Source: an uncultured virus (IMG/VR IMGVR_UViG_3300029985_000038) (Duplodnaviria > Heunggongvirae > Uroviricota > Caudoviricetes). Taken from it: a stretch of DNA of 64,000 bases. Made by a program: the position numbers and the translations under genes. The notes beneath the pieces are model-generated. The model did no database searches and was not told where the DNA came from. It was given only the letters and a program-made list of their open reading frames with translations. This document shows positions 38,344 to 54,140 of this stretch, piece by piece. Location: the IMG/VR virus record IMGVR_UViG_3300029985_000038, one strand, 5' to 3'. Every line of letters begins with the position of its first letter. Within the stretch, counting starts at the first letter, position 1.

Positions 38344-39522
38344 ATGGGATTGAAAACGAAAAAAATTGATAGTTTTACACAACATTATATTGAGGGATTG
38401 TTATTGAGCGACGGAAGTATGTCTTGCAATAATATATATGACCCAAAAAACGGAGCAAGATATTCTCAAGCTTGCATTTGTTTATCTTGGCTTGAAGAAA
38501 TTGCTAAGGTTTTAAACAATTCAGGTCTTAAAGCTACAATTGTTTCAGAACCTAGAGATGTTGGTAAACCAATATGGAGATTATATACAAATTATTGTGA
38601 AGCTTTAAGACCTATTTACAATAGATGGTATCATGGAAGTAAACAAGTACCTAGAGATATTGAATTTACTCCAACTTTATTAAGAAATTGGTATTTAGGA
38701 GATGGTTCATCTTGCCGTTCGGGAGCTAATTTATATGCAGAGGGATTTACAGTTGATTGTGTGGAATTTTTAACACAAAAATTATCGTTATATTTAGAAA
38801 GTCCTGTAACTCATACTAAAAATAATAATATATTTTTACCAGTATCAACTAGAATAAAATTTATTGATTTAATTTTACAGGCGAATACAGTTCCCGCAAA
38901 CATGGAACATAAATTTATTTTTAATGCCGATATGGTACAGCCCAATAAAGCTGTATTGTTTGGAGTTTCTGGTAAAAAGCGACATGGCAAAGATACTACG
39001 TTTAATATTTTGTCAGAATTACATAGTGATAAAAATTTCTATAAATTAGCATTAGCAGATCCATTAAAAGAAGAAACTAGTAGAATGTTGGCAAATACTT
39101 ATGTTAATTATGATATAGATAGTTTGGCATGGGTTGAAATTTATAAAAAAATTCGTTTAGAAATGGACTTAGATGAAACCAAAGAAGAATATAGAGGTAT
39201 TAATGCTTGGTGGGGAACAGAATTTCGAAGAAATAAATTTAGTCAAACTTATTGGACGGATAGATTATATCATAGAATACAACAATTATTAGGATCTAAA
39301 TGTTATATTGGTTGTACAGATTTAAGATTTCCAAATGAAATGCAATTGATTAAAGATTTAGGTGGGAAAACAATTAGGATTAATAATCCTAGAATCCCCA
39401 TTCTACCTAATGAGCATATAAGTGAAACTGCTTTAGATGATTATGATGGTTTTGATTATGTAATTACTAATGATGGTACATTAGAAGATTTAAAGAATAA
39501 AATAAAGGAATTACAATTATGA
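38344..39522 (+). CDS. LAGLIDADG-like domain fused to deoxynucleoside monophosphate kinase
   Basis: GLLLSDGS and WYLGDGS; then GKKRHGKDT, ADPLK, DLRFPNE, HISE. Confidence 0.85.
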   Translation: MGLKTKKIDSFTQHYIEGLLLSDGSMSCNNIYDPKNGARYSQACICLSWLEEIAKVLNNSGLKATIVSEPRDVGKPIWRLYTNYCEALRPIYNRWYHGSKQVPRDIEFTPTLLRNWYLGDGSSCRSGANLYAEGFTVDCVEFLTQKLSLYLESPVTHTKNNNIFLPVSTRIKFIDLILQANTVPANMEHKFIFNADMVQPNKAVLFGVSGKKRHGKDTTFNILSELHSDKNFYKLALADPLKEETSRMLANTYVNYDIDSLAWVEIYKKIRLEMDLDETKEEYRGINAWWGTEFRRNKFSQTYWTDRLYHRIQQLLGSKCYIGCTDLRFPNEMQLIKDLGGKTIRINNPRIPILPNEHISETALDDYDGFDYVITNDGTLEDLKNKIKELQL

Positions 39523-40109
39523 ACAAAAAACCAACTTGTATTATATGCGATTTAGATGGCGTCGTAGTTGATTCATCTTGTAGGCTTAAAAAATTAATTG
39601 ATTTTGCTGCATGGGATCGGGGTGATTTCAATGCCTATTACAAGAGTTATATCGGATATGGTTTAACTGTTGAAGGTGATGTTGCTCTAGAAGAAGGAAT
39701 TAAAGAACTCAAGTCAATTGTGGATCTTTACAATCCAGAAGAAATATTTTTTTTAACCGCTCGTGGAGATGTTGGAAGACCTTTAACTCTTAAATGGATT
39801 AGAGAACACATTTTTGCTGGTTTTTCTTCATCACATTTGATTATGAATCGTCATTTAGCGCAACTTGACCCTGCATGGGAATTTAAAGAAGGTGATCACT
39901 TTAGTCAAGTTGACTACAAAGAATATGAAATTAAAAAATTCATGGAAAATTATGAAGTCTTATTAGTTCTAGACGATCATCCTTCAATCATTGAAATGTA
40001 TGAAAGTTTAAATATTCCATGTAAATTAATTAAGTTTGAGAACGTTGATTGTGTAACACCAACTTCTAGGAGTGATAAAGCAGCACATGGTAACAAAAGA
40101 AAAAATTGA
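39519..40109 (+). CDS. HAD-family phosphatase (PNKP phosphatase-like)
   Basis: DLDG, TAR, K, DD motifs. Confidence 0.8.
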   Translation: MNKKPTCIICDLDGVVVDSSCRLKKLIDFAAWDRGDFNAYYKSYIGYGLTVEGDVALEEGIKELKSIVDLYNPEEIFFLTARGDVGRPLTLKWIREHIFAGFSSSHLIMNRHLAQLDPAWEFKEGDHFSQVDYKEYEIKKFMENYEVLLVLDDHPSIIEMYESLNIPCKLIKFENVDCVTPTSRSDKAAHGNKRKN

Positions 40110-40436: not shown

Positions 40437-41057
40437 ATGAAATTTTTTACAGGAGATACGCATTTTAAAGAAGAGGGTGTAATTATTAGGTCAAACCGCC
40501 CATTTATTGATATTGAGGAACATGATAAGGTTTTAATTGCAAATTGGAATAGTGTAGTTACACCAAATGACGATGTTTATCATTTGGGGGACTTTGCCTA
40601 TAATCCATTTTATAGAAATTCTAGTAAAGATACCGAAGATAAAGCTTATGAAACTTTTGCTGCGATTTTAGAACAGCTTAATGGGAGAATTCACTGGATC
40701 TATGGAAATCACGATCCAATTAAAAAGAAAAACTTAATGAGTGCTTTGAAGCAATATTTTGTTTGGACTGGAACACAATTAGAGATTAGCATTAGAGATG
40801 AAGATTTAGAAAGGAAAAATCAAAAAATTGTTTTACACCATTGCCCTTGGGAAGATTGGTATAATAAAGAAAGTTCATCATGGCAGCTTCATGCTCACAC
40901 TCATAACAAGTTACCAGATCGTCCTGATCTTTTAAGAATTGATGTTGGTGTGGATTGTCATAATTATACTCCTGTTTCTTATGAACAATTAAAAGAAAAA
41001 ATGAGTTATAAAACTTTTATTCCTCCTAAAAATAGGATGTTAAAAGCTACCAATTAA
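40437..41057 (+). CDS. Calcineurin-like metallophosphoesterase
   Basis: DTH, GD, GNHD, HAH, DVGVD. Confidence 0.9.
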   Translation: MKFFTGDTHFKEEGVIIRSNRPFIDIEEHDKVLIANWNSVVTPNDDVYHLGDFAYNPFYRNSSKDTEDKAYETFAAILEQLNGRIHWIYGNHDPIKKKNLMSALKQYFVWTGTQLEISIRDEDLERKNQKIVLHHCPWEDWYNKESSSWQLHAHTHNKLPDRPDLLRIDVGVDCHNYTPVSYEQLKEKMSYKTFIPPKNRMLKATN

Positions 41058-41963: not shown

Positions 41964-42508
41964 AAACAACATTATGGTTATTACCACTCATTATTGTCGT
42001 AATTGGCTGTGCGCAGAATCCAACTGTTAACGAAAAAGAATCTGTTGCACAAGATGTTATTCAACAAAATCTTAATTCAAAAGTTGGTGGAGCGCCAAAC
42101 ATTACAAATGGTACAGATAAATTAACTGTAAAGAAAATTTATGAAAAGCGTGATCAAGCTAATTTAATCACGTATGTTTATTCTGAAGATATGGTGGGTA
42201 TTCTTCATTTTAGGTTTAGAGCCAAAGGTTACCCTACTTGTTTAGCAACACAATGGTCCGCTCCTACAAAATGGACTTATGGTGGTTCCACTCGTGGTTA
42301 CTATCAAGAACCCCAGGCTGAGCCTAATGGTATTTATCCTCCAGCTACATCAGAAGGTGATTATATTCTTGCTATTGATGAAAACAACCCAAGTGTTGAT
42401 CATTTAGTGTTTTTTGAACCACGATGGGTTGTTTATGATTATCCTGTATCATATTTAAATCAAACTCCATTAATTGTTGATGGAAAGACGCTAATTTCAG
42501 GAAAATAA
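41960..42508 (+). CDS. Lipoprotein
   Basis: Signal peptide with VIGC lipobox. Confidence 0.75.
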   Translation: MKTTLWLLPLIIVVIGCAQNPTVNEKESVAQDVIQQNLNSKVGGAPNITNGTDKLTVKKIYEKRDQANLITYVYSEDMVGILHFRFRAKGYPTCLATQWSAPTKWTYGGSTRGYYQEPQAEPNGIYPPATSEGDYILAIDENNPSVDHLVFFEPRWVVYDYPVSYLNQTPLIVDGKTLISGK

Positions 42509-42523
42509 GGGTATAATAAGAAC

Positions 42524-42586
42524 ATGAAAGTAAGAGTAATGGTTATGGTAGTGGAAATGGAGGAACGTGAAGTAGAGACTTCATGA
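42524..42586 (+). CDS. Leader peptide MKVRVMVMVVEMEEREVETS (putative attenuator of tRNA cluster 1)
   Basis: TATAAT 42512-42517, ATG 6 nt later; 15 of 20 codons are Val/Met/Glu. Confidence 0.8.
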   Translation: MKVRVMVMVVEMEEREVETS

Positions 42587-42612
42587 CCATCTAGCTTTTA
42601 GAAATGCTCTTA

Positions 42613-42653
42613 AAGAACCCAGATGGTAAGAACTATCTGGGTTCTTGTTGTTT
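42613..42653 (+). terminator. Terminator with competing antiterminator
   Basis: AAGAACCCAGATGGT / ACTATCTGGGTTCTT; ACCATCT (42586-42592) is complementary to AGATGGT (42621-42627). Confidence 0.8.
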
Positions 42654-42656
42654 ATT

Positions 42657-42905
42657 ATGAAAAAAGATAAAAGTAAAATAAAGGAATGGTTGAGTTTCGC
42701 AAGAGAACAAAAGAAAAGTCATCTTTTAATTATTGAACAAACGTATAAAGGAATTAAAATTCCAGTATACATCAATAGAAAAGAAGATTTAGAAAAAACC
42801 ATTAATGATTACTCTAGTCTTAGTAAGGTAAATATTTTGGAAATATATAATACAAATTTAGATCCAAATATACAATTAAATAGCGTTAAGAATTGGGAAA
42901 AATAA
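42657..42905 (+). CDS. Hypothetical protein at head of tRNA cluster 1
   Basis: ORF track, ATG after terminator. Confidence 0.6.
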   Translation: MKKDKSKIKEWLSFAREQKKSHLLIIEQTYKGIKIPVYINRKEDLEKTINDYSSLSKVNILEIYNTNLDPNIQLNSVKNWEK

Positions 42906-42932
42906 AAAACTTTTGAAAATTAAATAATATTA

Positions 42933-43006
42933 CCTCGGTTGGCGCAATTTGGTAGCGCAACTCATTTACATTGAGAAGGTTGTAAGTTCAAATCTTACAC
43001 TGAGGA
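42933..43006 (+). tRNA. tRNA-Val(TAC)
   Basis: CCTCGGT/ACTGAGG acceptor; loop TTTACAT; GTAAG-TTCAAAT-CTTAC. Confidence 0.85.
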
Positions 43007-43016
43007 CGAGAAATAT

Positions 43017-43093
43017 GGCGGCATAGATTAGTGGCTTAAATCGCTTCGTTCTCACCGAAGAAATCACGGATTCGAATTCCGTTGTCGCTACCA
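43017..43093 (+). tRNA. tRNA-Glu(CTC), encoded CCA
   Basis: GGCGGCA/TGTCGCT; CTTCG-TTCTCAC-CGAAG. Confidence 0.9.
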
Positions 43094-43113
43094 CGAGAAA
43101 TACGAGATAAAAT

Positions 43114-43202
43114 GGCGGTGTCTTCCAAGGGTAGGAAACCGGACTTTCTAAGGCAAAGGCTTTAGAAATCCGTAAATCGGAGTTCAATTCTCCGCATCGC
43201 TA
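43114..43202 (+). tRNA. tRNA with 25-nt anticodon loop (18-nt insertion); Glu(TTC) if removed 3' of the anticodon
   Basis: Normal acceptor, D and T arms; loop 43144-43168 holds a 10-bp hairpin. Confidence 0.7.
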
Positions 43203-43231
43203 CGAGAGGTATAGGAGGTATAGGAGGAAAC

Positions 43232-43429
43232 ATGAAACGTACAATTAAGTTATTTTACAACGATAAAGTAGTTGGCACTATTTATGCAGACAAAGATGAA
43301 CCTTGGAACTCTATTCAAATGAGAGGATTCCAAAAGTTACAAATGGATGCAATTAGTCCCAATAGTAGATTATTCGCCGTCAAGCTTCAACGAGATAAAT
43401 TGAAGTGCGTGGAACAGGCAGTCGCGTAA
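43232..43429 (+). CDS. Hypothetical protein within tRNA cluster
   Basis: AGGAGG SD. Confidence 0.65.
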   Translation: MKRTIKLFYNDKVVGTIYADKDEPWNSIQMRGFQKLQMDAISPNSRLFAVKLQRDKLKCVEQAVA

Positions 43430-43439
43430 TTGCCAAAAT

Positions 43440-43517
43440 ACAACAACATAGTTTAATTAAAACACCTGGTCGTCTTGGACTGGGAGAGTGCAGATTTGGA
43501 TTCTGGCTGTTGTTGTA
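43440..43517 (+). pseudogene. Degenerate tRNA-like element
   Basis: ACAACAACA/TGTTGTTGT closing stem, D-, anticodon- and T-like arms, CGAGA trailer. Confidence 0.5.
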
Positions 43518-43701
43518 CGAGAAAAACATGAATATAAAATCAGATAATCGTAAAATAAAAAGAAAATCATTAAAAGAAACAAGATGTATGGATTGTAAAA
43601 AAACCTTGGGTTTATGAAGGTTTAGATGATAGAAATTAAATAGAGTTAACTTTCGCAGAAGAAGACGCTTTCAATTAGTCCTAATGCGAAACGAGATGTA
43701 C

Positions 43702-43770
43702 GGCTAGTGCCTGGGGTAAGGGCTGGTTTTTCATAAGAATCGGAAATGGGTTCGAATCCCATACTAGCTA
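43702..43770 (+). tRNA. Compact tRNA with CAT anticodon (Met or Ile2)
   Basis: GGCTAGT/ACTAGCT; loop TTCATAA; ATGGG-TTCGAAT-CCCAT. Confidence 0.75.
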
Positions 43771-43983
43771 CGAGAATTTATAGTTTCCAGTAACAGCAAG
43801 CCATTATCAAACTCTCTGTGACAGTTTGGGCATAGATATATTAAATTATTTATATCGTTTATTTCACTTAATTTGATGTCATTAGAAAAATCCTTTACTG
43901 CTTTAATATGACAAGTGTCAACAAATTTATTATAACTACAATTTTTACAAGGCTTACCACGATCTAGATATTAATCCGTAATA

Positions 43984-44808
43984 TCAAACCCAAACTTTAT
44001 GGATATTATTTGGGTTTAAATACATTCCCGTATTCATAAAGGCAGTAATAACAAATCTTAATTTGTGATCCACTATTTCGTTTGTTAGATAAAAATTTCC
44101 TAAACCAAATGAATACATTTTCCCTGAATTATTATGGAATAGTAATGGCATATTTTTTTCTACCATTGTTGTACTAACCATAATTTTAGTTTTATGGAAT
44201 GTTCCGTAAATTTGAGTTTTAAGAATATCCACTTGATCTTCATTAACAATAAAATCTTTTCTAACATCTGATCTTTTATAATGCATGAAATCTTTGCCAG
44301 TTTGTCCATTTGGAAATTTAAAATTTCCATAATCTTTTGGATGTAAGACTAAATATCCTTCCATACTTTTTGAAATTTCTTCTAATTCTTCCCAACCAGT
44401 TAAGGGTGTTATTAACTTATAGTGATTTACTATAGATAGTTTTATTTTAGTTTGTAATTGTCTATCTAACGAATCCCTAATTTTTATTATTAATCTTTCG
44501 TTTAGGTATTCTCTATGTTTAGAGTTGTTTTGTTTGAAAATTTCATCCAAATAGACATGACATTCTAATGGAATTTTTGCTATGAAAATTTCACTACCTT
44601 CAACTAATGGGGCATTATCAATTAATGGCATTATGTATTTATCGTTTTCTGATTTTTTAACTCTTAGAATTTCTTCGTTAGTGTGAGGTTCGTTGTTAAA
44701 TAATTTATAAACCCAGTTGGTGTCGATAATTTCCTGAAAAAATGGATCAGTTTTTTCGTGGGCGATAGGCTTAAAAGCCCATAGAATTTCTTCTGTTATA
44801 TTAATCAT
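43984..44808 (-). CDS. Hypothetical protein, possible divergent major-capsid-protein paralog
   Basis: LHPKDY...ILKTQIYGTF....IMVS resembles HK97-fold A-domain pattern. Confidence 0.4.
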   Translation of the reverse strand: MINITEEILWAFKPIAHEKTDPFFQEIIDTNWVYKLFNNEPHTNEEILRVKKSENDKYIMPLIDNAPLVEGSEIFIAKIPLECHVYLDEIFKQNNSKHREYLNERLIIKIRDSLDRQLQTKIKLSIVNHYKLITPLTGWEELEEISKSMEGYLVLHPKDYGNFKFPNGQTGKDFMHYKRSDVRKDFIVNEDQVDILKTQIYGTFHKTKIMVSTTMVEKNMPLLFHNNSGKMYSFGLGNFYLTNEIVDHKLRFVITAFMNTGMYLNPNNIHKVWV

Positions 44809-44911
44809 ATATTTTCCTTGGTTCATCACCAAATGAAACTTCATCAGTTTCAAGGTTAGTATAATTAAAATCATACTTGATAATCCAAAATTATGGTATA
44901 CTTCCTTCATT

Positions 44912-45298
44912 ATGGGACATTGGAGTGAAGAACCTTACGATAATGATGGCGCAATGGATTTATTGCCAGATTATCACTATGCTATTTTTAAAGCTATTAA
45001 GCAACAAGTTGACAAATGGGATTTAACAGACTTAAATCGTTTCCCATATGATGCAATCAGATGTACAGCACAATACATCATTGATTATTTAGAAGTGTTT
45101 TCCGTAGATACTGACGATGCCTATTTGGTGTGCGTAAAGATACTTGAAGCGTTAAATATCATTGATAATTCTACTTATTTTGAATGTTGGCGCGATCCAG
45201 TAGCTTTTCGTACCTCATTAGAGGGTATGATTGTTAGAATGAAAGATATTGAATCGAAACAAAAAGAAGTATATGATTTGTTTAGTGGTGATGAATAA
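44912..45298 (+). CDS. DUF4259-like protein
   Basis: MGHW....YDNDGAMD start. Confidence 0.6.
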   Translation: MGHWSEEPYDNDGAMDLLPDYHYAIFKAIKQQVDKWDLTDLNRFPYDAIRCTAQYIIDYLEVFSVDTDDAYLVCVKILEALNIIDNSTYFECWRDPVAFRTSLEGMIVRMKDIESKQKEVYDLFSGDE

Positions 45299-45873
45299 TG
45301 GCTAAAATTTTAGAAACATCTTTAGAAACACAGGTGCGTATGGCAGAAGCTTTGCGTCAACTGTTGTCGTTGTTGGATTTTAGACCAGAATTCGGACCAA
45401 ATAAAAAGAGTTTTAAGGATACGGACTTCCAAAATGAAGATGGTACACCTTGTGAACTTTTTGATGGATGGATTAGCACCTTTTTATACAAGGAAGATAG
45501 TCGGAGTGTTACGGGTAAAATTGAATGTCTCAGGCGCACATTGGAAGGTGCGGAAACTGGAGAGATTTTAGTTGATTATCTTAATGTCTGTGATCAAGTA
45601 ATGAAAAAATCTTGGAATATTGAAAGTAAGTTTAAAAAGCTATCTAGTCTTATCAATACTCCAGAAAACGAAAGCACATACATCAAAGATGAAGTAAGAC
45701 GACAAGAAACAATTAATAAGAGTATTCAGTATACTCTTAAAGAACTTGAGCAAGATTTATCTGAATTCAATGACTTTAAGTATAAAGCTACACAATGTCG
45801 CAATAAACTTAGAGACGTAAAATTAGTTGAAGAAGTCAACGGTGTACAAACAGATAAAAGGGAATGGGAATGA
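45298..45873 (+). CDS. Hypothetical protein
   Basis: Coupled TAATG start. Confidence 0.7.
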   Translation: MAKILETSLETQVRMAEALRQLLSLLDFRPEFGPNKKSFKDTDFQNEDGTPCELFDGWISTFLYKEDSRSVTGKIECLRRTLEGAETGEILVDYLNVCDQVMKKSWNIESKFKKLSSLINTPENESTYIKDEVRRQETINKSIQYTLKELEQDLSEFNDFKYKATQCRNKLRDVKLVEEVNGVQTDKREWE

Positions 45874-46384
45874 CATGGGTATGAAATTATTAAATGACGT
45901 AGAAACTTTTCGTGCTAATATTGAGGCTAAGGGCGCGGTGTCTGTTTTTGATTCATTGGTGTCAGACTATCGTTCAGAAAAGGCGGGTATTGAATCTCAG
46001 ATAAAGAGAGAATATAAATGGGATAGGTCTGGATTTTTAGCCAAGATTTCAGGTTGGATTATTGCGGGTATTTTAACTGCTAGTATTGTTGTTTTTTGGA
46101 GCTATATTGGGTTATCTAATGCTCAACTAAATCAAGATCAATATTATTTCAATATTCAAAAAAAAGAATTTGCCAATTATCAAGACTCTGAAAACAGTAA
46201 ATTTGCGATATATAAAAATAGCGAAATGAATCGTATTCATAATATAGAAATTGAAATGAAGAAATCCAATGATGATACAGTGCTAAAAGAACAGGCTTAT
46301 ACTGAAAAAATGCGCAGAATGCTTATTGCGCACGGTATTGATCCAGATCCTAATTGGCGTTCTGGTTCACCAATACAAAAATAA
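45827..46384 (+). CDS. Membrane protein
   Basis: One TM helix; start uncertain. Confidence 0.65.
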   Translation: MKKSTVYKQIKGNGNDMGMKLLNDVETFRANIEAKGAVSVFDSLVSDYRSEKAGIESQIKREYKWDRSGFLAKISGWIIAGILTASIVVFWSYIGLSNAQLNQDQYYFNIQKKEFANYQDSENSKFAIYKNSEMNRIHNIEIEMKKSNDDTVLKEQAYTEKMRRMLIAHGIDPDPNWRSGSPIQK

Positions 46385-46604
46385 TAATGTATAACAGCTA
46401 TATGAGTTTCAGTTTAGACGAAGATTCAATAAAGCCAATTAAAGTATTAGACAGTTATTTGACAAACATTGCCAAAACACCAGCCGATAATCCACTTGTT
46501 ATAGCAGTAAAAGCCGCTATAACAAGTGAATCTGCATCAGACATAGACAATGTGTGGTATTATTTATATGAAGAAGAAGAAGACTTAGGATTCAAATTCG
46601 ACAT

Positions 46605-46895
46605 ATGGGTAATGAAAAATTATGGACAATAATATTCCGCATTAAATTATTAGATTTTGTAAATAAAAACATTGACGATATTGATACAATTGTTGTTCAT
46701 TGTCATGCGGGATGCTCTAGATCAGCAGGTTTAGCATGTATTTTATCGAAAATCTATAATAATCAAGAGAGTTGGTTTTGGGAAAACCCAGAATTAAGAT
46801 GTAATACTCTAGTTTACAAAGTAACCTTAGAGTATTTTAACGAAACTGTAGACAAAGATAAACGTCTACAAACAGTATTGGAGGAAGATGTATGA
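46605..46895 (+). CDS. Protein-tyrosine-phosphatase-like protein, apparently N-truncated
   Basis: HCHAGCSRSAG (CX5R). Confidence 0.65.
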   Translation: MGNEKLWTIIFRIKLLDFVNKNIDDIDTIVVHCHAGCSRSAGLACILSKIYNNQESWFWENPELRCNTLVYKVTLEYFNETVDKDKRLQTVLEEDV

Positions 46896-47179
46896 AAAAA
46901 AGTTTATTATTAATTCTAGCAAGTTTGATGTTGGTATCTATGTCGTTTGCGCAAGATGGCAAAATCATCAGGCGTATTAAAATTCGTAGCGCAGATCCAT
47001 ATTTTATCGCTATGATGTTGGCTGGTCGTCAAAATTACAATTTAGCACCAGAAACCTCTACTATTCTAAAAACTAATTTAGGTGGTGGAAGATCAGGAGG
47101 ATCAGGTAGTTTCGGTGGTTTCGGATCAGGTTCAGGATCAGGTGGTTTTGGTAGCGGTGGTCGCGGCAACGGTGGTTAA
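46892..47179 (+). CDS. Secreted small protein with Gly-rich tail
   Basis: Signal peptide ending SFA; GGFGSG repeats. Confidence 0.75.
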   Translation: MKKSLLLILASLMLVSMSFAQDGKIIRRIKIRSADPYFIAMMLAGRQNYNLAPETSTILKTNLGGGRSGGSGSFGGFGSGSGSGGFGSGGRGNGG

Positions 47180-47206
47180 TTTTAATGGCACTATTTGATA
47201 GTGCCA

Positions 47207-47539
47207 TTAAAATAGTTTTTGAACCGTGAAAGACCCTCTTTGTGTGATTGATAAATCGCCAGAAGCATTGAATAAAAATTTATATTGTCCAGCTACTGTT
47301 GTAAGCCAATCTATATAGTAGGTTCCTGTAATATTTAAGTTATTTCCATCGTTGCAATAGTGTAATACTCCAATACCGTCTGGTTCAGGGGTTGTATATG
47401 TGACGACAGTTGGGGATGTAGCACCAGGAATTAGCATGGTGAATGTTAATGTGGCTGGATTATAAGGAACCCCACAGTCTGTTGTTATTACACATTCTAA
47501 GCGAATTGTAGTTCCACTTTCAAAAACATTTGTTATCAT
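47207..47539 (-). CDS. Probable virion protein (Ig-like/baseplate-upper-like)
   Basis: TGTYY...AGQY.F pattern; structural operon context. Confidence 0.55.
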   Translation of the reverse strand: MITNVFESGTTIRLECVITTDCGVPYNPATLTFTMLIPGATSPTVVTYTTPEPDGIGVLHYCNDGNNLNITGTYYIDWLTTVAGQYKFLFNASGDLSITQRGSFTVQKLF

Positions 47540-47578
47540 GGTGTATCTATTATTTAATAAAAACTATGATTAAAACCT

Positions 47579-49549
47579 TTAACTAGTGATATTAATTGTC
47601 ATATTTGATCTTGGGCTAATACTTATTTCCATGTTATATGCAATATTACTAATTGACATATTTGATCTTGGAGATACCGTGGCGTACATCTTACCACTTA
47701 AAACATTAAATGTAAACATAGGTTTATAAATAAAGGCTATACTTTTAATGCCAATAGGCAAAACAGTTTGTGGTGTTTCTAAAACTGGATAACCAAAAGC
47801 TATTACACTGTTAATGCCATTTGGTGATAATTGTGCAGAAGGTAAACCGAGAGAGGCGAATCCAAAAGCAATATTCGAAGAAATACCACTTGTATTAGTT
47901 GTTATGTTACCAGATACTGTTGATGTACCAAAAGCAATATGTGAATTTAGTCCTAATGGACTAATTATTACTTCTCCTGCTTGTAAAATTTGTGATCCAA
48001 AAGCTATATGTGAAGCTAAACCAGCTACAGACAAGACGCTAGAAGATATTATGGTGTTGTTACCAAAAGCCATGTGTGAAGCAATGCCTGACACACTTAA
48101 AGTGAAATTACTTGGCACCATTGATGGTAAACCAAAAGCTATGTTTGATGGAATACCTGAAACTCCAAAAGTAGTACTTCCTCCAGCTATTGAGTGTACT
48201 CCAAAAGCGATATGAGAAGCCAATCCTGTTAAGTTTAATGTTGTGGAACTAGATAGCGTATGCGCTCCGAAAGCTATATGCGAGGTTAATCCACTAGGAT
48301 TGATTATAACTACTCCAGGGGTCAACACATGTGATCCAAAAGCGATATGAGAAGCTAATCCACTTGGACTTACTGTGGCTGTTCCAGGGGTTAGTGTGTG
48401 TGATCCAAAAGCGATATGTGAAGCTAACCCTGTTACTGTAATTGTTTTAACACTAGATAATGTATGTGATCCAAAAGCAATATGAGAAGCTAATCCACTT
48501 GGACTAATGTTTACTGTTCCAGGGGTTAATGTATGTGATCCAAAAGCAATTTTAGAAGCAATACCTACAGGGAAAACACTTGCTGTTCCAGGGGTTAATG
48601 TATGTGATCCAAAAGCTATATGTGAAGTTAAACCGCTTGGACTAATGTTTACTGTTCCAGGGGTCAACGTAGGCGCACCAAATGCTATATGAGAAGTTAA
48701 TCCACTTGGACTAATGTTTACTGTTCCAGGGGTTAATGTATGTGATCCAAAAGCTATATGAGAAGTTAACCCATTAGGGCTAACTGTAACTGTTCCAGGC
48801 GTTAAAGTGTCTGAACCAAAAGCAATTCCTGAAGCAATTCCACCTGGGCTGAGTGTTATTGTGACTATTCCTGGTAAAAATGATACGATGATAGATTGAC
48901 AGTAGAAACTACTTGAAAAACTTGCACTAAATCCTTGACTGCTAGAATAAGATCCTGTTGAACTTTCATTTGCATAAGCAAATTGGCTTAAAGAATTAAC
49001 AGATCCTGCACTAGATTCTGTATTAATAGATGTAAACGAATTAACAGGTGAACCACTATAATTTTGTGGAGATCCTTGATAAATATTATTCATGAACGCT
49101 ACAACAAGTTCATTGTTATTGTTAACGCCAACACTGCTTGTGGTACATGTTGCTGAAGTTCCACTTTGAAGACTTTGATTATTAGATACATAAGCATCAA
49201 CAACGGTACTTGTATCTACACCAGAAAATTCTGCAATTTGAGCCTGAATAGATTGACCAGAAGAACCTCCACTGCCAAAATTAACAGCGACGTTAGTTCC
49301 TGCTGATGCCCCAACAATTCCATAATATAAATATATTGTATATGATACAGAATAATTACTTATCTGAGATGTAATTAGTGTCCAAGTAACATTTGTTTGG
49401 GTAATAGATGGAACACCAGCGGCAGTTGGACCAATAACGCCCATAACCATAACGTTTCCATTGGTTGGGGCTGATACAGTTAAGTTTAATGTGAAGGCAC
49501 CAATGCCAATTGTACCATTATTCTTAGCATTATTAACAAGTGTAGCCAT
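47579..49549 (-). CDS. Virion protein with tandem ~23-aa repeats (GL.SHIAFGSHTLTPGTV.ISP)
   Basis: Repeats visible in protein and as ~69-bp DNA units. Confidence 0.8.
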   Translation of the reverse strand: MATLVNNAKNNGTIGIGAFTLNLTVSAPTNGNVMVMGVIGPTAAGVPSITQTNVTWTLITSQISNYSVSYTIYLYYGIVGASAGTNVAVNFGSGGSSGQSIQAQIAEFSGVDTSTVVDAYVSNNQSLQSGTSATCTTSSVGVNNNNELVVAFMNNIYQGSPQNYSGSPVNSFTSINTESSAGSVNSLSQFAYANESSTGSYSSSQGFSASFSSSFYCQSIIVSFLPGIVTITLSPGGIASGIAFGSDTLTPGTVTVSPNGLTSHIAFGSHTLTPGTVNISPSGLTSHIAFGAPTLTPGTVNISPSGLTSHIAFGSHTLTPGTASVFPVGIASKIAFGSHTLTPGTVNISPSGLASHIAFGSHTLSSVKTITVTGLASHIAFGSHTLTPGTATVSPSGLASHIAFGSHVLTPGVVIINPSGLTSHIAFGAHTLSSSTTLNLTGLASHIAFGVHSIAGGSTTFGVSGIPSNIAFGLPSMVPSNFTLSVSGIASHMAFGNNTIISSSVLSVAGLASHIAFGSQILQAGEVIISPLGLNSHIAFGTSTVSGNITTNTSGISSNIAFGFASLGLPSAQLSPNGINSVIAFGYPVLETPQTVLPIGIKSIAFIYKPMFTFNVLSGKMYATVSPRSNMSISNIAYNMEISISPRSNMTINITS

Positions 49550-49605
49550 AATTATTGTGTCCTAATATAAGATTCAATAATTATGGCTATATAACCTATA
49601 AAAAA

Positions 49606-49872
49606 TTATAGTGTTGTTACGGCTTCTTCTGAATGTATTCCTCCTGCAACAAGTGTTTGTGCTTCAGGTAGGGATTTTGTTAAAATTTTATGTAGAGTAG
49701 CAATTTCTTCAGGTGATAAGTCTTTTATTTTATCTTTTAGATCATTTTCATGAATTTTTGCATCATAGGCACTGACTACATCAGTTAATTCGGTACGTAA
49801 TGTAGCGATTTGTTGTTGTAGTTCAAGGCGTCTTGCTTGTAATTGTTCGGTTGTTAATTCAGTGTAATTCAT
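49606..49872 (-). CDS. Small coiled-coil protein
   Basis: ORF track. Confidence 0.65.
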   Translation of the reverse strand: MNYTELTTEQLQARRLELQQQIATLRTELTDVVSAYDAKIHENDLKDKIKDLSPEEIATLHKILTKSLPEAQTLVAGGIHSEEAVTTL

Positions 49873-49873
49873 T

Positions 49874-50188
49874 TTAATAATTTCCTATAATACTTTTTAT
49901 AATATCTTCTTGAATATCCTTTGATAAGTTATTAAAACTTATACATGATCTAGCTCTGCTTACTGCCTCTTCTAATAAATCTCTTACTCTTGATCCTACT
50001 GGATCTTTTTTAGATTTATTGTGAATTACCCATAATTCTAGATTTTCTATTCTATTATCGTCTCTAATACCGTTTTTATGATAAATTCTTTCATCTTTAT
50101 GTAACTGTCTTTGAAGATATTGCTCCATTATATAACGATGTTCTTGTACCCATTGTTGAGATTTTAAACCATTATTTTTATTATACAT
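49874..50188 (-). CDS. HNH endonuclease, short or degenerate
   Basis: EHRYIME...YHKNGIRDDNRIENLELW. Confidence 0.8.
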   Translation of the reverse strand: MYNKNNGLKSQQWVQEHRYIMEQYLQRQLHKDERIYHKNGIRDDNRIENLELWVIHNKSKKDPVGSRVRDLLEEAVSRARSCISFNNLSKDIQEDIIKSIIGNY

Positions 50189-50208
50189 ATTCTAATGGAT
50201 GATACCTA

Positions 50209-50610
50209 TCACAACACGAATATTTTGTTCGCCCCTGAGTCCCATTGAATCGTAATATTTCCTGAGTTTGGTGTTATAGGTAAGTTAGAAGCAGTATCAA
50301 AGTAAGCAATTAATTGAGAAGTACTATCTGTTCCAGTGTTTGCATAAATCACAAAGTAATCAACTGTAGCACCAGTAACTGAGGAAAAAGTAACATTAGC
50401 TGCATTTGCAACACCACCAGTGCTTGTAACACTCGTTAGGGAACTAGAACGTGCAACGATGTAAGAGGCAATTGTGGAAACATATTGATCAGTAGCAAGG
50501 TTAACAGTATAGCTACTATTAACTAGTGCAACACGAAGATCCGCTGTTGCCCAATCAATACCGCCGTTTAAAAATGATTGTCTAGCCAAAGTGTATAAAG
50601 CGTTTGCCAT
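50209..50610 (-). CDS. Virion/tail-associated protein (MANALY type)
   Basis: LIAYFD...LPITPN.GNITIQW motif; SD present. Confidence 0.7.
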   Translation of the reverse strand: MANALYTLARQSFLNGGIDWATADLRVALVNSSYTVNLATDQYVSTIASYIVARSSSLTSVTSTGGVANAANVTFSSVTGATVDYFVIYANTGTDSTSQLIAYFDTASNLPITPNSGNITIQWDSGANKIFVL

Positions 50611-50709
50611 TTAATTTTTCTCCAATATTTTATTATTCGTGTCGGTTAATACAAACCCTTTAATTTGATAATAAAATCTATAAAATTTTGAAACATGGTA
50701 TAATAAGGC

Positions 50710-51492
50710 ATGTCTTTATTTCGCGTAACTTTCACTGGAGTTGATGGAAAAACTGATTTAAGAAGATTAAATCAGTTGTCAACTGATTATCCCTTTATTG
50801 AATGGGGTGTATTGTTTTCTAGATCAAAGCAAGGTTTAGAAAATCGTTATCCAAATCTTAATGTAATTGCTGATTTTGTAAATCTAGAAAAGCCAATTAA
50901 ATCCGCACATATCTGTGGCAATTGGACTGGAGAAAACCGTAATTATCAATGTCCTCGTGATATAGCTAAAGCACTTTATGATTTATTTGGTGGATTCAAT
51001 AGGTATCAATTTAATATTAGTAATGCCAAAGATGCCCACAGTTATGAAATCTTTCATCAAAACGTGGTTAATTGTGATAATCTACCTTTTTATCAAGGTG
51101 GATTTGTCAACTATCCTAAATTCATTCTTCAAAGTAAGAGTTTTAATTTAACTCAACAAACAATAGAATTATTGAGCTATATACGTGATTACGATGGTAA
51201 TGTACATAATTCAAACCACAACGATCCATTAATCCATGTGCTTTTGGATAATTCAGGGGGCATAGGTAGGGTTTTAGACATCGTAGCTCCACCTGAAGAC
51301 TTTAGATATACCCCAGGTTATGCAGGAGGCATTAATCCTGAGAATGTTGCAGAAGTGATTGGTAAAATTGAAGCCTTAAATCTTAAACAGGATTATTGGA
51401 TTGATATGGAAACAGGCGTAAGAATAGATGATTGGTTTGATTTAGACAAATGTGAAGCTGTAGCCAAGATTGCTAAACAATTTATACACTAG
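50710..51492 (+). CDS. TrpF-like TIM-barrel protein
   Basis: D.SGG.G, GYAGGINPENV, WIDMETGVR. Confidence 0.7.
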   Translation: MSLFRVTFTGVDGKTDLRRLNQLSTDYPFIEWGVLFSRSKQGLENRYPNLNVIADFVNLEKPIKSAHICGNWTGENRNYQCPRDIAKALYDLFGGFNRYQFNISNAKDAHSYEIFHQNVVNCDNLPFYQGGFVNYPKFILQSKSFNLTQQTIELLSYIRDYDGNVHNSNHNDPLIHVLLDNSGGIGRVLDIVAPPEDFRYTPGYAGGINPENVAEVIGKIEALNLKQDYWIDMETGVRIDDWFDLDKCEAVAKIAKQFIH

Positions 51493-51530
51493 TTGAAATA
51501 CTAGTGTATAAATATATGGGAGGTACAAAT

Positions 51531-51668
51531 ATGGAATCAATGCAATCAATCAAAGGAATACTTCTTATAGCCGCAGTTATATTATTTATAGTCGCATCAT
51601 GGCTTAATAATTCAAAAGTCGCATATGCTGGTTTGGCATGTTTCGCGGCTTCCCAGTTGCCAATCTAA
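51531..51668 (+). CDS. 45-aa membrane peptide
   Basis: GGGAGG SD; translated by hand (MESMQSIKGILLIAAVILFIVASW...). Confidence 0.65.
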   Translation: MESMQSIKGILLIAAVILFIVASWLNNSKVAYAGLACFAASQLPI

Positions 51669-51736
51669 AAAAGTCTAGAAAAAGTAGTAAAACCCAAAGA
51701 AACCTGGGTATAATAAGAACAGTTAGGAAAACTATC

Positions 51737-51808
51737 ATGAAAACACAAGTCGCCACAATTATTATTGCAGCCGCAGCAGCGATTATCGCTGATGCCGAAC
51801 TTGGGTAA
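51737..51808 (+). CDS. Leader peptide MKTQVATIIIAAAAAIIADAELG (putative attenuator of tRNA cluster 2)
   Basis: TATAAT 51709-51714, AGGA SD; 8 Ala, 5 Ile, 1 Val codons. Confidence 0.82.
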   Translation: MKTQVATIIIAAAAAIIADAELG

Positions 51809-51835
51809 CTAAAGATAGTAACTAAACTAATCAAC

Positions 51836-51870
51836 AAAAGACTCAAGTTCAAGAAACTTGAGTCTTTTTT
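51836..51870 (+). terminator. Terminator with competing antiterminator
   Basis: AAAAGACTCAAGTT / AACTTGAGTCTTTT plus U tract; GAACTTGGGT (51797-51806) pairs with ACTCAAGTTC (51841-51850). Confidence 0.88.
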
Positions 51871-51894
51871 GTGTTTTGTAGTTACGAGATGAAT

Positions 51895-51971
51895 GGGGAG
51901 TGGGACTGCTTTGGGGTGGTCGTTTCTATGGCATAGAAAACACTAGACGGGTTCGATGCCCGTACTCTCCA
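51895..51971 (+). tRNA. tRNA-Ala(GGC)
   Basis: G3:U70; TTTCT-ATGGCAT-AGAAA. Confidence 0.85.
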
Positions 51972-51982
51972 CGAGAATAAAT

Positions 51983-52054
51983 GGGGGATTAGCTCAGCGG
52001 GAGAGCGGGACTTTTGCAAAGTTCAGGTCAGGGATTCGAATTCCCTATCCTCCA
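51983..52054 (+). tRNA. tRNA-Ala(TGC)
   Basis: G3:U70; loop TTTGCAA; canonical cloverleaf. Confidence 0.92.
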
Positions 52055-52065
52055 CCGAGATAAAT

Positions 52066-52137
52066 CGCCGTATGTCGAAATGGGAAAGAAAATGCCTGAT
52101 TAGCGTTCATGACTGGGTTCGATTCCTAGTGCGGCGA
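52066..52137 (+). tRNA. tRNA-Ile(GAT)
   Basis: CGCCGTA/TGCGGCG; AATGC-CTGATTA-GCGTT. Confidence 0.8.
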
Positions 52138-52165
52138 CGAGAAAATTGATTTCAAATATCGTGCT

Positions 52166-52348
52166 ATGAAAAATATAAATCAATATAAAAAAGAAAATGA
52201 GCGTTTAATTTCATTACTTAAAAAAGTCCAATGGAATGCAGAACCTAATTGTTGTGGTGCATGTGTTTATTGTTATTGTTATGAATGGGAAGAACATAGC
52301 GAAGATTGTGAATTAAATAATTTATTACATGAAAATATAGGAAAATAA
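52166..52348 (+). CDS. Small Cys-rich protein
   Basis: ORF track. Confidence 0.6.
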   Translation: MKNINQYKKENERLISLLKKVQWNAEPNCCGACVYCYCYEWEEHSEDCELNNLLHENIGK

Positions 52349-52349
52349 T

Positions 52350-52685
52350 ATGGAAAACTTAATGCAAAGATTTTTGGAAAAAACAGACGAAACCGGAAGA
52401 TTTATGGTATACTCTAAAAAGACTGGTATCAAGTATTTTGTTGAGCCTATTATGGGTGGAGAAAGAAGATCTTGGGGCGATCTTATCCCTGGTAAATCTG
52501 GTGCTGGAATTGAAGGTGATTATGGTTCTAAATATTTAGGAGCAGTTCACAAAGAAGACTCTTTAATAACAGAAGAAAATGGTTTTAAGAATATTGAATT
52601 GTTAGGTAGAGGGGTTAGTCCTCATGGAACAATTCATGAGGTAGATGACGAAAGATATGCTCAAGGTTTCAGACCAAGAGCATAA
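52350..52685 (+). CDS. Conserved phage hypothetical protein
   Basis: ORF track. Confidence 0.75.
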   Translation: MENLMQRFLEKTDETGRFMVYSKKTGIKYFVEPIMGGERRSWGDLIPGKSGAGIEGDYGSKYLGAVHKEDSLITEENGFKNIELLGRGVSPHGTIHEVDDERYAQGFRPRA

Positions 52686-52709
52686 TGATCAAATCCCAAC
52701 GAGATAAAT

Positions 52710-52778
52710 GGGGGATGTACGGGGTGTACTTCTGACACTTGCAATGTCGGCAAAAGGATTCGAGTTCCTTATTCTCCA
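52710..52778 (+). tRNA. Compact tRNA-Ala(TGC) with 6-bp anticodon stem
   Basis: G3:U70; CTGACA-CTTGCAA-TGTCGG. Confidence 0.8.
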
Positions 52779-52791
52779 CCGAGATAAATAT

Positions 52792-52881
52792 CTCCTGCTA
52801 CCTCAACGGCTAGAGGACTCGACTGAAAAATCCAGAGATTTTTCTAATTGAGCTATCCAAGTTCGATTCTTGGGCGGGAGA
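52792..52881 (+). tRNA. tRNA with 25-nt anticodon loop (18-nt insertion); Phe(GAA) or Arg(TCT) after removal
   Basis: CTCCTGC/GCGGGAG; loop 52823-52847 holds an 8-bp hairpin. Confidence 0.7.
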
Positions 52882-52896
52882 CGAGAAAAATTGTAC

Positions 52897-52972
52897 TAGA
52901 ATATAGTTTTGCGGAAAAACACAGTTTTGAGATTAATACAACTGGGACGTAAGTTCGACTCTTACTATTCAT
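52897..52972 (+). pseudogene. Degenerate tRNA-like element
   Basis: GTAAG-TTCGACT-CTTAC T arm; CAGTT/AACTG stem with 13-nt loop. Confidence 0.45.
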
Positions 52973-53056
52973 AGACATAGGTTGGAATGTTGGTTGGCTA
53001 CCGTGTCTTAATCCGCGATACAGTTCGATTCTGTATAATAATTTCTAACCGAATCT

Positions 53057-53128
53057 GGGCGCATAGATCAATGGCAGATCGCAAACTTGACAGGTTTGAG
53101 GTTATGGGTTCGAACCCCATTGTGCCCA
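53057..53128 (+). tRNA. tRNA-Val(GAC)
   Basis: GGGCGCA/TGTGCCC; CAAAC-TTGACAG-GTTTG. Confidence 0.92.
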
Positions 53129-53157
53129 CGAGTAAAATGTGGTATACTGATTATCTT

Positions 53158-53358
53158 ATGACAGTGTATTTATTAGTTAAAGGAAGAAAAGTTTTCCATA
53201 ATGATGGACCAATGGACGAAGAAGAGTATACAACTACCGAATTAGATCCTGTAGAAATTACTTTTTCCGAATCAAAAGCTAAAGCTTGGAATGAACAAGA
53301 TAAAACTATGTATGGCTTTAAAGCTTTTGAAGTTACAGGAGAACCAGATCAGGTATAA
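53158..53358 (+). CDS. Hypothetical protein
   Basis: Start revised, after GGTATACT. Confidence 0.65.
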   Translation: MTVYLLVKGRKVFHNDGPMDEEEYTTTELDPVEITFSESKAKAWNEQDKTMYGFKAFEVTGEPDQV

Positions 53359-53364
53359 TAAAAC

Positions 53365-53655
53365 ATGATTCAAAATATTATTATTACAAATGGTGTCAAG
53401 ACCGCATCTTGTGAAATTTTAGGAACACCTAAATTTCCATACAATATAGATAATATCTCATTTCATGAGATTCCCGGTTATGGTTTAAACGATTTTTCGT
53501 ATGATGTTCTTGGTTATTTAATTGATGCCGATCAAAGAGTTTGGGTGAAATTACAAGAAAATGTTCCATTTCGTGAAACTACAATGGAAGAATTAACAGC
53601 CTATCAATTAGAATCCGTTAGAAAATGGGACTATTTGATAGTGCCATTAAAATAG
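53365..53655 (+). CDS. Hypothetical protein
   Basis: GGTATAAT-N5-ATG. Confidence 0.7.
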   Translation: MIQNIIITNGVKTASCEILGTPKFPYNIDNISFHEIPGYGLNDFSYDVLGYLIDADQRVWVKLQENVPFRETTMEELTAYQLESVRKWDYLIVPLK

Positions 53656-53924
53656 GAGATTATCCTTTAGCTACAGTCGTTATTACTTCACCAGAAGTGC
53701 GTTTTACAATTAAAGGCACATATTCTGGAAAGGATATTCCTAATATATTTGAATATGCTGATGACAATGGTTGTACTAAAGATTTTATAAAATGGTTAAA
53801 ATCTAACAATATTAAGTGCCGTGATCAAAAGGTTGGCGATTCTTATTCTTTCACTGTTAATGCTAGAAGTGCGGTTGGGGTAAGACAATGGTTTTATGAT
53901 AATGAGGTTAAAACACAATCATGA
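53625..53924 (+). CDS. Hypothetical protein
   Basis: ORF track. Confidence 0.6.
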   Translation: MGLFDSAIKIGDYPLATVVITSPEVRFTIKGTYSGKDIPNIFEYADDNGCTKDFIKWLKSNNIKCRDQKVGDSYSFTVNARSAVGVRQWFYDNEVKTQS

Positions 53925-54140
53925 CAATGAACCTTCAAGAAGAATATGATGATTTAATTTCGGGATGGAGCCATTTTACAGATGCTCATAAAGTTTTCTT
54001 TGATTATTTGAATGCAATGTTAACAGAAGAACAAAAAGAAAAACTTATAAACAAAGCAAGATTAACTGTGCTTGAATTAAGCTTTCCAAATCAGTAAGAT
54101 CAACAAAGGAAAGTTTAATGGTTTATGTGTACATAAAGTT

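Follow-up and report, generated by a model that had tools for sequence, protein, structure and literature searches.

How can a transfer RNA (tRNA) read a codon when its anticodon is paired inside a hairpin? The question is raised by two tRNA genes in DNA of an uncultured virus of the Caudoviricetes (IMG/VR record IMGVR_UViG_3300029985_000038); "the window" means here the whole stretch that was analysed, 64 kb in length. In each gene, a cloverleaf with normal acceptor, D and T arms carries an anticodon loop enlarged to 25 nucleotides (nt). To our knowledge, tRNA introns in bacteria and their viruses are thought to be removed by self-splicing only, and short protein-spliced tRNA introns are a hallmark of archaea and eukaryotes. 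The feature is real and unusual, and it is a variant among the little-understood interrupted tRNA genes of huge phages. We tentatively favour the reading that both genes contain a short intervening hairpin that would be excised from the precursor.

Structure of the two interrupted genes

The genes and their parts, all on the plus strand, are the following:

43114-43202, plus strand: tRNA 1, a Glu(UUC)-type cloverleaf with a 25-nt anticodon loop (fold, scanner, body matches, alignment)
43144-43168, plus strand: anticodon loop of tRNA 1, 25 nt, CTTTCTAAGGCAAAGGCTTTAGAAA (fold, scanner)
43146-43148, plus strand: anticodon TTC of tRNA 1, within a 10-bp helix
52792-52881, plus strand: tRNA 2, a cloverleaf with a 25-nt anticodon loop; candidate identities Ile, Phe and Arg (fold, scanner, ARAGORN, identity pairs)
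52823-52847, plus strand: anticodon loop of tRNA 2, 25 nt, CTGAAAAATCCAGAGATTTTTCTAA (fold, scanner)
52825-52832 paired with 52837-52844, plus strand: 8-bp helix of tRNA 2, closed by the tetraloop 52833-52836

The first-pass annotation had described both tRNAs, with normal arms and 25-nt loops, at these places and one in each tRNA array; folding and a cloverleaf scanner confirmed the former, and the latter was also borne out. Both genes fold as cloverleaves with an acceptor stem of 7 bp, a D stem of 4 bp and a T stem of 5 bp, in which the anticodon arm is closed and elongated because the loop hairpin stacks on the anticodon stem. The loop of tRNA 1 forms 10 bp with the tetraloop AAAG and a bulged C32, and that of tRNA 2 forms 8 bp with the tetraloop CAGA, flanked by unpaired stretches of 2 and 3 nt. 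A 7-nt loop with an exposed anticodon is thus absent from both, the anticodon being paired in the fold of minimum energy. The z-scores of the whole-gene folds were -4.43 for tRNA 1 and -3.22 for tRNA 2, with none of 200 shuffles as stable in either case; for the arm only they were -5.11 (0/200 shuffles) and -3.17 (2/200), respectively.

The scanner, in which the T-loop and the acceptor, D and anticodon stems were fixed and the loop length was left free, found 20 of the maximum of 21 stem pairs in tRNA 1 and all 21 in tRNA 2, each with a 25-nt loop and a 4-nt variable region. These scores equal those of canonical neighbours, and visibly decayed units in the same arrays reach at most 18.5. Direct reading showed U8, A14, G18-G19, A21, G53, T54-T55-C56, A58 and C61 in both genes. 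The 5' part of each enlarged loop retains C32-U33 and a sensible anticodon, and the discriminator base is immediately followed by CGAGA (43203-43207 in tRNA 1 and 52882-52886 in tRNA 2, plus strand). The two inserts have 18 nt each and no shared sequence, and no further copies of either were seen.

Standard tools handle these genes poorly. ARAGORN in its default bacterial mode reported tRNA 2 only, typed as tRNA-???, and missed tRNA 1; its intron mode added only a 6-nt "intron" at 52897-52973 and still missed tRNA 1. The Rfam tRNA model RF00005 gave no match at either locus, at the gathering threshold or at E <= 10. Independent contigs from three other peat runs are identical to the window letter by letter, without indels (X3, X4 and X5 over tRNA 1; X3 and X4 over tRNA 2), so the sequence is no assembly artefact. 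No insert-free allele was seen in the X3-X5 contigs, in which rare variants are dropped.

The glutamate tRNA and its insertion point

Two features serve to identify tRNA 1:

43017-43093, plus strand: intact tRNA-Glu(CTC), a paralogue of tRNA 1
43149-43166, plus strand: putative intervening hairpin with a 6-bp stem, AAAG and 2 nt complementary to nt 35-36

Positions 1-5 and 68-72 of the tRNA 1 acceptor stem, including two G.U pairs, are identical to those of the Glu(CTC) neighbour, and at pairs 6-67 and 7-66 both partners differ. Among 620 ARAGORN tRNAs, Glu(TTC) accounts for four of the seven best-matching bodies, and in the alignment the D arm and the anticodon stem closely resemble those of a Glu(TTC) gene of a related locus (L060). 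Judging by its body and anticodon, tRNA 1 is a glutamate tRNA, Glu(UUC), and the identity proposed for it in the first-pass annotation therefore holds.

The loops of the uninterrupted Glu(TTC) genes in the alignment read TTTC followed by a purine. Against these genes, tRNA 1 shows a single 18-nt gap exactly between TTTC and AA, so the insert is 43149-43166, between nt 36 and 37. This is also the only removal frame that yields Glu with A37. Frames at 37/38 leave T37 in tRNA 1, as they do in one of the related genes (L075) considered below.

What tRNA 2 may read

The removal frames of tRNA 2 give Arg(UCU), Ser(GCU), Ile(GAU) or Phe(GAA); Ser(GCU) was excluded by the short variable region. Three features matter for the choice:

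52827-52844, plus strand: candidate 18-nt hairpin (6 bp, tetraloop and 2 nt) that would leave an Ile(GAU) loop (frame table, inference)
52828-52845, plus strand: alternative frame that would leave Phe(GAA) (frame table)
52066-52138, plus strand: intact tRNA-Ile(GAT) in the same array, with the C1-G72 start and C4-G69 as in tRNA 2

The body of tRNA 2 contains C4-G69, U12-A23 and C29-G41 together with A73, which we take to be the isoleucine identity set of E. coli. All three pairs occur in 6 of the 244 unique canonical tRNAs of the data set, namely in two of 21 Ile(GAT), two of seven Arg(TCT), one Arg(CCT), one Pro and none of 11 Phe(GAA) genes. A20, presumably the main arginine determinant, is missing from tRNA 2 and present in the Arg(TCT) genes of loci L009 and L018. 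The 5' strand of the anticodon stem is the same as in the Ile(GAT) gene of L075. Overall body similarity is indecisive, with top scores of 15-18 shared by Val, Ile and Arg, and Phe absent from the top 12. With low confidence, the isotype of tRNA 2 may be placed slightly in favour of Ile over Phe and Arg. The Phe(GAA) and Arg(TCT) named in the first-pass annotation both stay candidates; they are no longer the sole ones, in view of the Ile(GAU) frame and the isoleucine pairs.

Recurrence in related phages

A small conserved open reading frame (ORF) of the second array, 52350-52685, was used as an anchor to fetch 19 viral and 80 metagenome loci, most of them tRNA arrays of huge phages on contigs of up to 436 kb. 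Together with 14 tRNA-dense stretches added from eight of the fetched records, the survey covered about 0.79 Mb of tRNA-array DNA and about 410 high-scoring cloverleaves with 7-nt loops, duplicates in overlapping loci counted. Hairpin-closed enlarged loops were found five times in four phages: the two genes of the window, two further clear cases and a weak one.

L020:8544-8639: 31-nt loop, clear case
L075:9714-9816: 37-nt loop, clear case
L112(-):1523-1613 (record G008): 25-nt loop, weak case

The insert lengths of the five cases are 18, 18, 18, 24 and 30 nt. The L075 gene scores 50 bits with the Rfam tRNA model and has G3:U70, the anticodon TGC and Ala tRNAs as its nearest bodies. Since its Ala identity features match TGC, the anticodon read on the 5' side of the enlarged loop is the real one. 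Although tRNA 1 and the L075 gene are different tRNAs from different phages, TAAGG forms the first five nucleotides of both inserts, and both have the matching TTTAG near the end. The L112 gene is considered weak because its whole-gene fold gives no cloverleaf (z -0.07); its anticodon reads TTA, of the ochre-suppressor type, in four (k=4 to k=7) of the eight frames tested (k=0-7).

A further candidate, L021:5565-5657 with a 25-nt "loop", was dropped for lack of a cloverleaf fold, and many "loops" of 15 to 23 nt were dropped as class II tRNAs whose variable arm had been mis-assigned by the parser.

A possible excision pathway

We infer that the precursors of both tRNAs carry a short hairpin adjoining or within the anticodon, which proteins would cut out, rejoining the halves before the tRNA decodes. 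In tRNA 1, removal of 43149-43166 between nt 36 and 37 would give tRNA-Glu(UUC); the product of tRNA 2 would be tRNA-Ile(GAU) or tRNA-Phe(GAA). Excision is favoured because the tRNA bodies are intact and the CGAGA punctuation is kept, because the anticodons agree with the identity features of the bodies, and because the design recurs in four phages. It is also favoured by a CCA-adding enzyme and an RNA-end phosphatase encoded in the window, by the family PF09414 in relatives, and by the interrupted tRNA genes known from Lak megaphages (PMC6784885). GAA is the commonest codon of the window (55.9 per 1000 vs 10.2 per 1000 for GAG; 74 ORFs, 16,475 codons), so the interrupted Glu(UUC) gene is the one that the phage would need most. 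For the first-pass remark that GAA is a sensor codon in a leader, this high usage is the only supporting observation.

In tRNA 1, and in tRNA 2 when read as Ile, the removable 18 nt comprise a stem of 6 bp closed by a tetraloop and, at the 3' end, 2 nt that can pair with the final two nucleotides of the exon. This common build would account for the equal length despite unrelated sequence, and a staggered cut through both strands that leaves 2-nt 3' overhangs would release a piece of the same geometry. The stacked helix of tRNA 1 has 14-15 bp and that of tRNA 2 has 13 bp, and for tRNA 1 the predicted geometry is compatible with a cut of the RNase III type. An RNase III-like double-strand cut of this kind would leave 3'-OH and 5'-phosphate ends, which an ATP-dependent RNA ligase could seal directly. 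In our opinion, this particular route of RNase III plus ligase is quite unlikely.

The symmetric frame with 2-nt 3' overhangs would yield Glu, Ile, UUA and Ala anticodons in four of the cases and an implausible Gln(UUG) with G37 for L020, where it fails as a universal rule. When five loop nucleotides are kept on the 5' side and two on the 3' side, U33 and a purine at 37 are obtained in all five cases, and tRNA 2 would become a Phe tRNA. Symmetric blunt or 5'-overhang cuts were rejected because they give Ser or suppressor anticodons on class I bodies, and 37/38 was rejected as a universal position because T37 is left in tRNA 1 and L075.

Among the proteins of the window, three may be relevant to RNA ends:

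31997-33970, minus strand: tRNA nucleotidyltransferase (CCA-adding), 657 aa, with an HD domain (Pfam PolyA_pol 1e-16; phrog_2244 1.6e-51)
39519-40109, plus strand: HAD-type polynucleotide 3'-phosphatase, Pnkp-like, with a DxD motif (Pfam HAD_PNKP; phrog_415 4.6e-18)
40437-41057, plus strand: metallophosphoesterase beside the Pnkp-like gene, one of two in the window (Pfam Metallophos; phrog_547 1.2e-41)

Most tRNAs of the arrays encode no CCA. No kinase P-loop was seen in the Pnkp-like phosphatase. In the related records, the RNA-ligase family PF09414 is above the cut-off in four of five, including the record of the L112 case. It is also possible that an enzyme is supplied by the host.

The anchor ORF itself (52350-52685, plus strand, 111 aa) was examined as a candidate processing factor. 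It lies within the arrays, and its occurrences (19 viral, 104 metagenome stretches) are for the most part inside tRNA arrays of huge phages; an alignment of 25 sequences shows 15 invariant columns and a near-invariant SLITEENGFKNI block. It belongs to no Pfam or PHROG family. Its AlphaFold model has a pLDDT of 83 and a best VIA-align Z of 2.9; Foldseek found nothing in the PDB at E <= 0.001, and the protein atlas gave no usable match. Its distribution makes it a candidate tRNA-related factor.

Arguments against excision and rival explanations

A number of observations weigh against excision. We know of no protein-dependent tRNA splicing in bacteria or phages. A scan for the bulge-helix-bulge motif (two 3-nt bulges on opposite strands, separated by 4 bp) found no perfect motif in either gene of the window, and in none of the five genes does such a motif restore a 7-nt loop without a mispair; with one mispair allowed, each gene of the window has one match, neither restoring a 7-nt loop. 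The absence of this motif, already asserted in the first-pass annotation, is therefore borne out. The canonical 37/38 intron position is not that of tRNA 1 (36/37) and is ambiguous in tRNA 2. No single cut rule suits all five cases, and only tRNA 1 discriminates between frames, the L075 and L112 genes giving the same loop in three of them. The RtcB or Rnl ligases and endonucleases envisaged earlier did not turn up: Pfam revealed no RNA ligase, RtcB, EndA or RNase III among the 106 non-overlapping ORFs of the window, scanned in two sets (25 and 81) that cover 64 kb of the phage. RtcB is present in one of the five related records, and RNase III (PF14622) in none, two of them being fragments, so that such absences carry little meaning. 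With 5 cases in about 410, each of them unique, the design is rare, and this fits recent damage too. The L075 contig has an intact Ala(TGC) and tRNA 2 has an intact Ile(GAT) nearby, so at least some of the interrupted copies are redundant. No orthologue with or without the insert was found, and hence there is neither within-lineage covariation nor an exact empty site. The comparison of homologues proposed in the first-pass annotation succeeded in so far as uninterrupted Glu(TTC) genes place the insert, and yielded no orthologous pair.

Damage at the DNA level, a fourth reading beside the mini-intron, pro-tRNA and decoy proposed in the first-pass annotation, is the explanation to be considered next. 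A palindromic insertion may have recently hit good tRNA genes and turned them into young pseudogenes, either by fold-back (snap-back) repair of a break in the anticodon loop or through a tiny hairpin-forming mobile element, and such pseudogenes would be tolerated thanks to redundant arrays or tRNA supplied by the host. The well-defined inserts are indeed a self-complementary hairpin plus 2 nt inverted from the 2 nt just upstream, which is what fold-back synthesis would produce, and the hairpins are nearly perfect, as young insertions should be. The arrays also contain decaying tRNA-like units (43438-43517, 51895-51971 and 52897-52973, and closed-arm units in relatives), and the rarity and uniqueness of the cases and the intact isoacceptor copies beside some of them are expected of pseudogenes as well. 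However, two independent hits of equal length in one genome, both on top-scoring bodies, would require an active and specific mechanism, and the inserts have neither a common sequence nor further visible copies. The string C32-U33-anticodon is retained on the 5' side wherever the side of insertion can be judged, the TAAGG/TTTAG common to tRNA 1 and L075 suggests a constraint at the junction, and one of the interrupted genes reads the commonest codon of the phage. In view of these data, we regard such insertions as possible and rather doubtful. It is unlikely, in our opinion, that the hairpin is never removed and the genes encode non-decoding tRNA look-alikes, processed and CCA-tailed, that serve as a decoy or sponge for host tRNA-directed defence nucleases or tRNA-binding factors, or as a stable RNA. 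The tRNA cluster of phage T4 reportedly includes unexplained stable RNAs, a duplexed anticodon can neither decode nor be cut by nucleases specific for single-stranded loops, and related arrays hold arms capped by loops of 3 to 6 nt, which are beyond rescue by splicing. Jumbo phages also carry tRNA-repair and counter-defence genes (PMC7824862). On the other hand, a decoy for anticodon nucleases should display the loop and not hide it, the retention of a true anticodon and C32-U33 matching the body identity would be left unexplained, and the closed-arm units recur only in near-identical contigs, so that their conservation is not demonstrated. Moreover, GluRS, PheRS and IleRS read the anticodon, and such RNAs would stay uncharged.

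Finally, the extra bases of tRNA 2 might lie outside the anticodon loop, in a class II-like structure with an 8-nt loop (GAAA) and a long variable arm. ARAGORN draws 52792-52882 in this manner and calls the L020 case Leu(TAA) with a long arm. This fold of tRNA 2 was rejected on mismatches and energy: drawn like this, the anticodon stem contains a C.C mismatch and the extra arm an A.G mismatch; energy minimisation gives the extended hairpin instead (ensemble frequency 0.39), and tRNA 1 offers no such alternative. It is highly improbable.

Comparison with known interrupted and repaired tRNAs

The introns of archaea and eukaryotes, removed by EndA/Sen and then RtcB or Trl1, resemble the inserts of the window in being short, in adjoining the anticodon and in extending the anticodon stem by pairing. 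They differ in that the genes of the window have no bulge-helix-bulge and tRNA 1 is interrupted at 36/37 instead of 37/38; in addition, the virus looks bacterial, and no EndA family is found among its 106 window ORFs. Group I introns occur in anticodon loops of bacterial and phage tRNAs. Like the inserts studied here, they are interruptions of this loop in bacterial-world genes, and the end of their 5' exon is paired into a hairpin (P1). Their catalytic core (P3-P9) takes about 200 nt or more, in contrast to the 18 nt here, and no Rfam intron families were found in the window. RNA genes are also known to harbour small palindromic insertion elements, such as the Rickettsia palindromic elements. 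These are likewise short hairpin-forming DNA within structural RNA genes, but they exist in many similar copies, whereas the inserts of the window are unrelated to each other and no other copies were seen.

In phage T4, PrrC cuts a tRNA, which is then repaired by Pnkp and Rnl1 (PMC7824862). There, too, phage enzymes religate a break in the anticodon loop, and a phosphatase of the Pnkp type is encoded in the window along with a CCA-adding enzyme. The T4 system mends a single cut inflicted by the host and removes no sequence, and in the window no ligase or kinase domain was found.

The nearest precedent is provided by "enigmatic" introns in tRNA genes of Lak megaphages, which are conserved across cohorts and for which the authors suggested a wide occurrence among large phages (Devoto et al. 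2019, PMC6784885; preprint 10.1101/356790). Table S6 of that study gives Lak inserts of 79-141 nt, in which a small hairpin precedes a nested tRNA-like arm that has a T-loop, and inserts of 23, 52 and 76 nt for another large phage (PMC6784885). The Lak genes and those of the window alike are tRNA genes of huge phages with bacterial hosts, interrupted in the anticodon loop just 3' of the anticodon by inserts that are too short for self-splicing and have no known route of removal. In contrast, the inserts of the window are bare 18-nt hairpins that pair with the anticodon, without the nested arm; no simple hairpin type was found in the passages and table of the Lak study. In the literature, judged mostly on titles and the openings of abstracts, the Lak work was the nearest, and no other short hairpin inserts in phage tRNAs were found.

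The Lak build was seen once in our survey, in L038:259-380, where a His(GTG)-type tRNA has a 56-nt insert in the anticodon loop with a nested T-arm-like hairpin. A separate family of inserts, 37 to 50 nt long, occurs at more than one position of the tRNA (L002:4868-4980, L003:4331-4451, L009:1351-1466, L009:2787-2913 and L106(-):14470-14582; also in L107), some of them from gut metagenomes; common to its members are a small hairpin, a run rich in A and a motif resembling CAGCAA. In relatives, tRNAs for Cys, Met and Lys reach 88-93 nt (L007:8165-8256, L020:8864-8955, L009:2936-3028 and L010:1594-1681), with a long extra region between the anticodon and T arms that is unusual for these isotypes.

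The tRNA arrays and the genomic surroundings

The two tRNA arrays of the window are located as follows:

42933-43780, plus strand: first array
51885-53137, plus strand: second array

Each is preceded by a strong terminator-like hairpin, and in nearly every unit the discriminator base is followed by CGAGA instead of CCA. Of 28 plus-strand copies of CGAGA in the window, 15 fall in the two arrays (2.2 kb). The motif has the appearance of a processing or punctuation signal specific to the phage. Usually it belongs to a spacer of 10 nt, CGAGATAAAT or similar, which ends at the first base of the next tRNA; the arrays of L020, the closest relative, lack it.

Other aberrant units were noted in the window at 51895-51971, 52897-52973, 43438-43517 and about 52975-53050. 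In one, the anticodon arm is an 8-bp hairpin with a 3-nt loop that has TTTCTA/TAGAAA in common with the hairpin of tRNA 1; another has a 13-nt anticodon loop and 36.9 bits with the Rfam tRNA model, and two others are degenerate cloverleaves. The capped anticodon arm of 51895-51971 is like units in relatives, where anticodon-less tRNA-like genes have loops of 3 to 6 nt (L009:239-306, L009:4960-5030, L045:4066-4134, L058:108-181 and L100(-):1961-2032); well-formed units of this type recur in near-identical contigs of several samples. Small ORFs lie between the tRNA units of the arrays (43232-43429, 43529-43617 and 52166-52348), one of them with a strong AGGAGG ribosome-binding site, and none of the three had a family match.

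The window has about 34% G+C, is rich in tRNA genes and resembles a fragment of a huge phage; the DNA runs that contain it are peat metagenomes, and a search for runs with 43000-52999 returned no RNA run. Its annotated gene set is that of a large phage and includes, by Pfam and PHROG:

UvrD-type helicase
DnaJ-domain protein
NUDIX
dCMP deaminase
ATP-dependent DNA ligase
tail-like protein of 656 aa
SpoU-type RNA methylase

The virus looks bacterial, to judge by an L7/L12-like ORF, the class-II-type CCA enzyme and AGGAGG ribosome-binding sites. The first of these is a 102-aa ORF (10667-10975, plus strand) whose match is to the C-terminal domain of this ribosomal protein. A complete TnpB (OrfB_IS605 with a Cas12f-like TNB domain) lies within the phage DNA at 27541-28776 on the plus strand. 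A deoxynucleotide monophosphate kinase ORF (38344-39522, plus strand) has a LAGLIDADG endonuclease domain in its N-terminal half, which could be an intein or a fusion.

Close relatives of this DNA are lacking. Megablast of 42000-54000 against phage records gave no match at the DNA level, the 656-aa ORF (47579-49549) retrieved 0 loci from viral contigs, and exact 3'-half patterns of 24 nt (tRNA 1) and 22 nt (tRNA 2) had 0 matches in viral contigs. The best relatives of neighbouring proteins have 64% identity in metagenomes and 55% in viral contigs, which is so distant that no orthologous filled or empty site can be compared.

Significance

Rfam misses both of these genes, and ARAGORN misses one and leaves the other untyped, so tRNA inventories of phages are undercounted. 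Hairpins of 18 to 30 nt without the archaeal motif may indicate an undescribed cut-and-rejoin pathway based on a nuclease and a ligase. A bolder version of this idea, which we consider doubtful, is that huge phages own a protein-dependent tRNA splicing of mini-introns composed of 6 bp, a tetraloop and a 2-nt tail and located at or within the anticodon, using a staggered, double-strand-specific cut and a phage RNA ligase. In that case the tRNAs most needed by the phage would be produced in a masked form as pro-tRNAs, proof against nucleases, and would become active in the course of infection. If true, this would be the first such tRNA splicing in the bacterial world and an added layer in the conflict of phages and hosts over tRNAs. 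Alternatively, the inserts may reflect a specific mutational or mobile process aimed at the anticodon loops of phage tRNAs. Either answer would inform our understanding of how huge phages manage their tRNA sets and of their arms race with the anticodon nucleases of the host.

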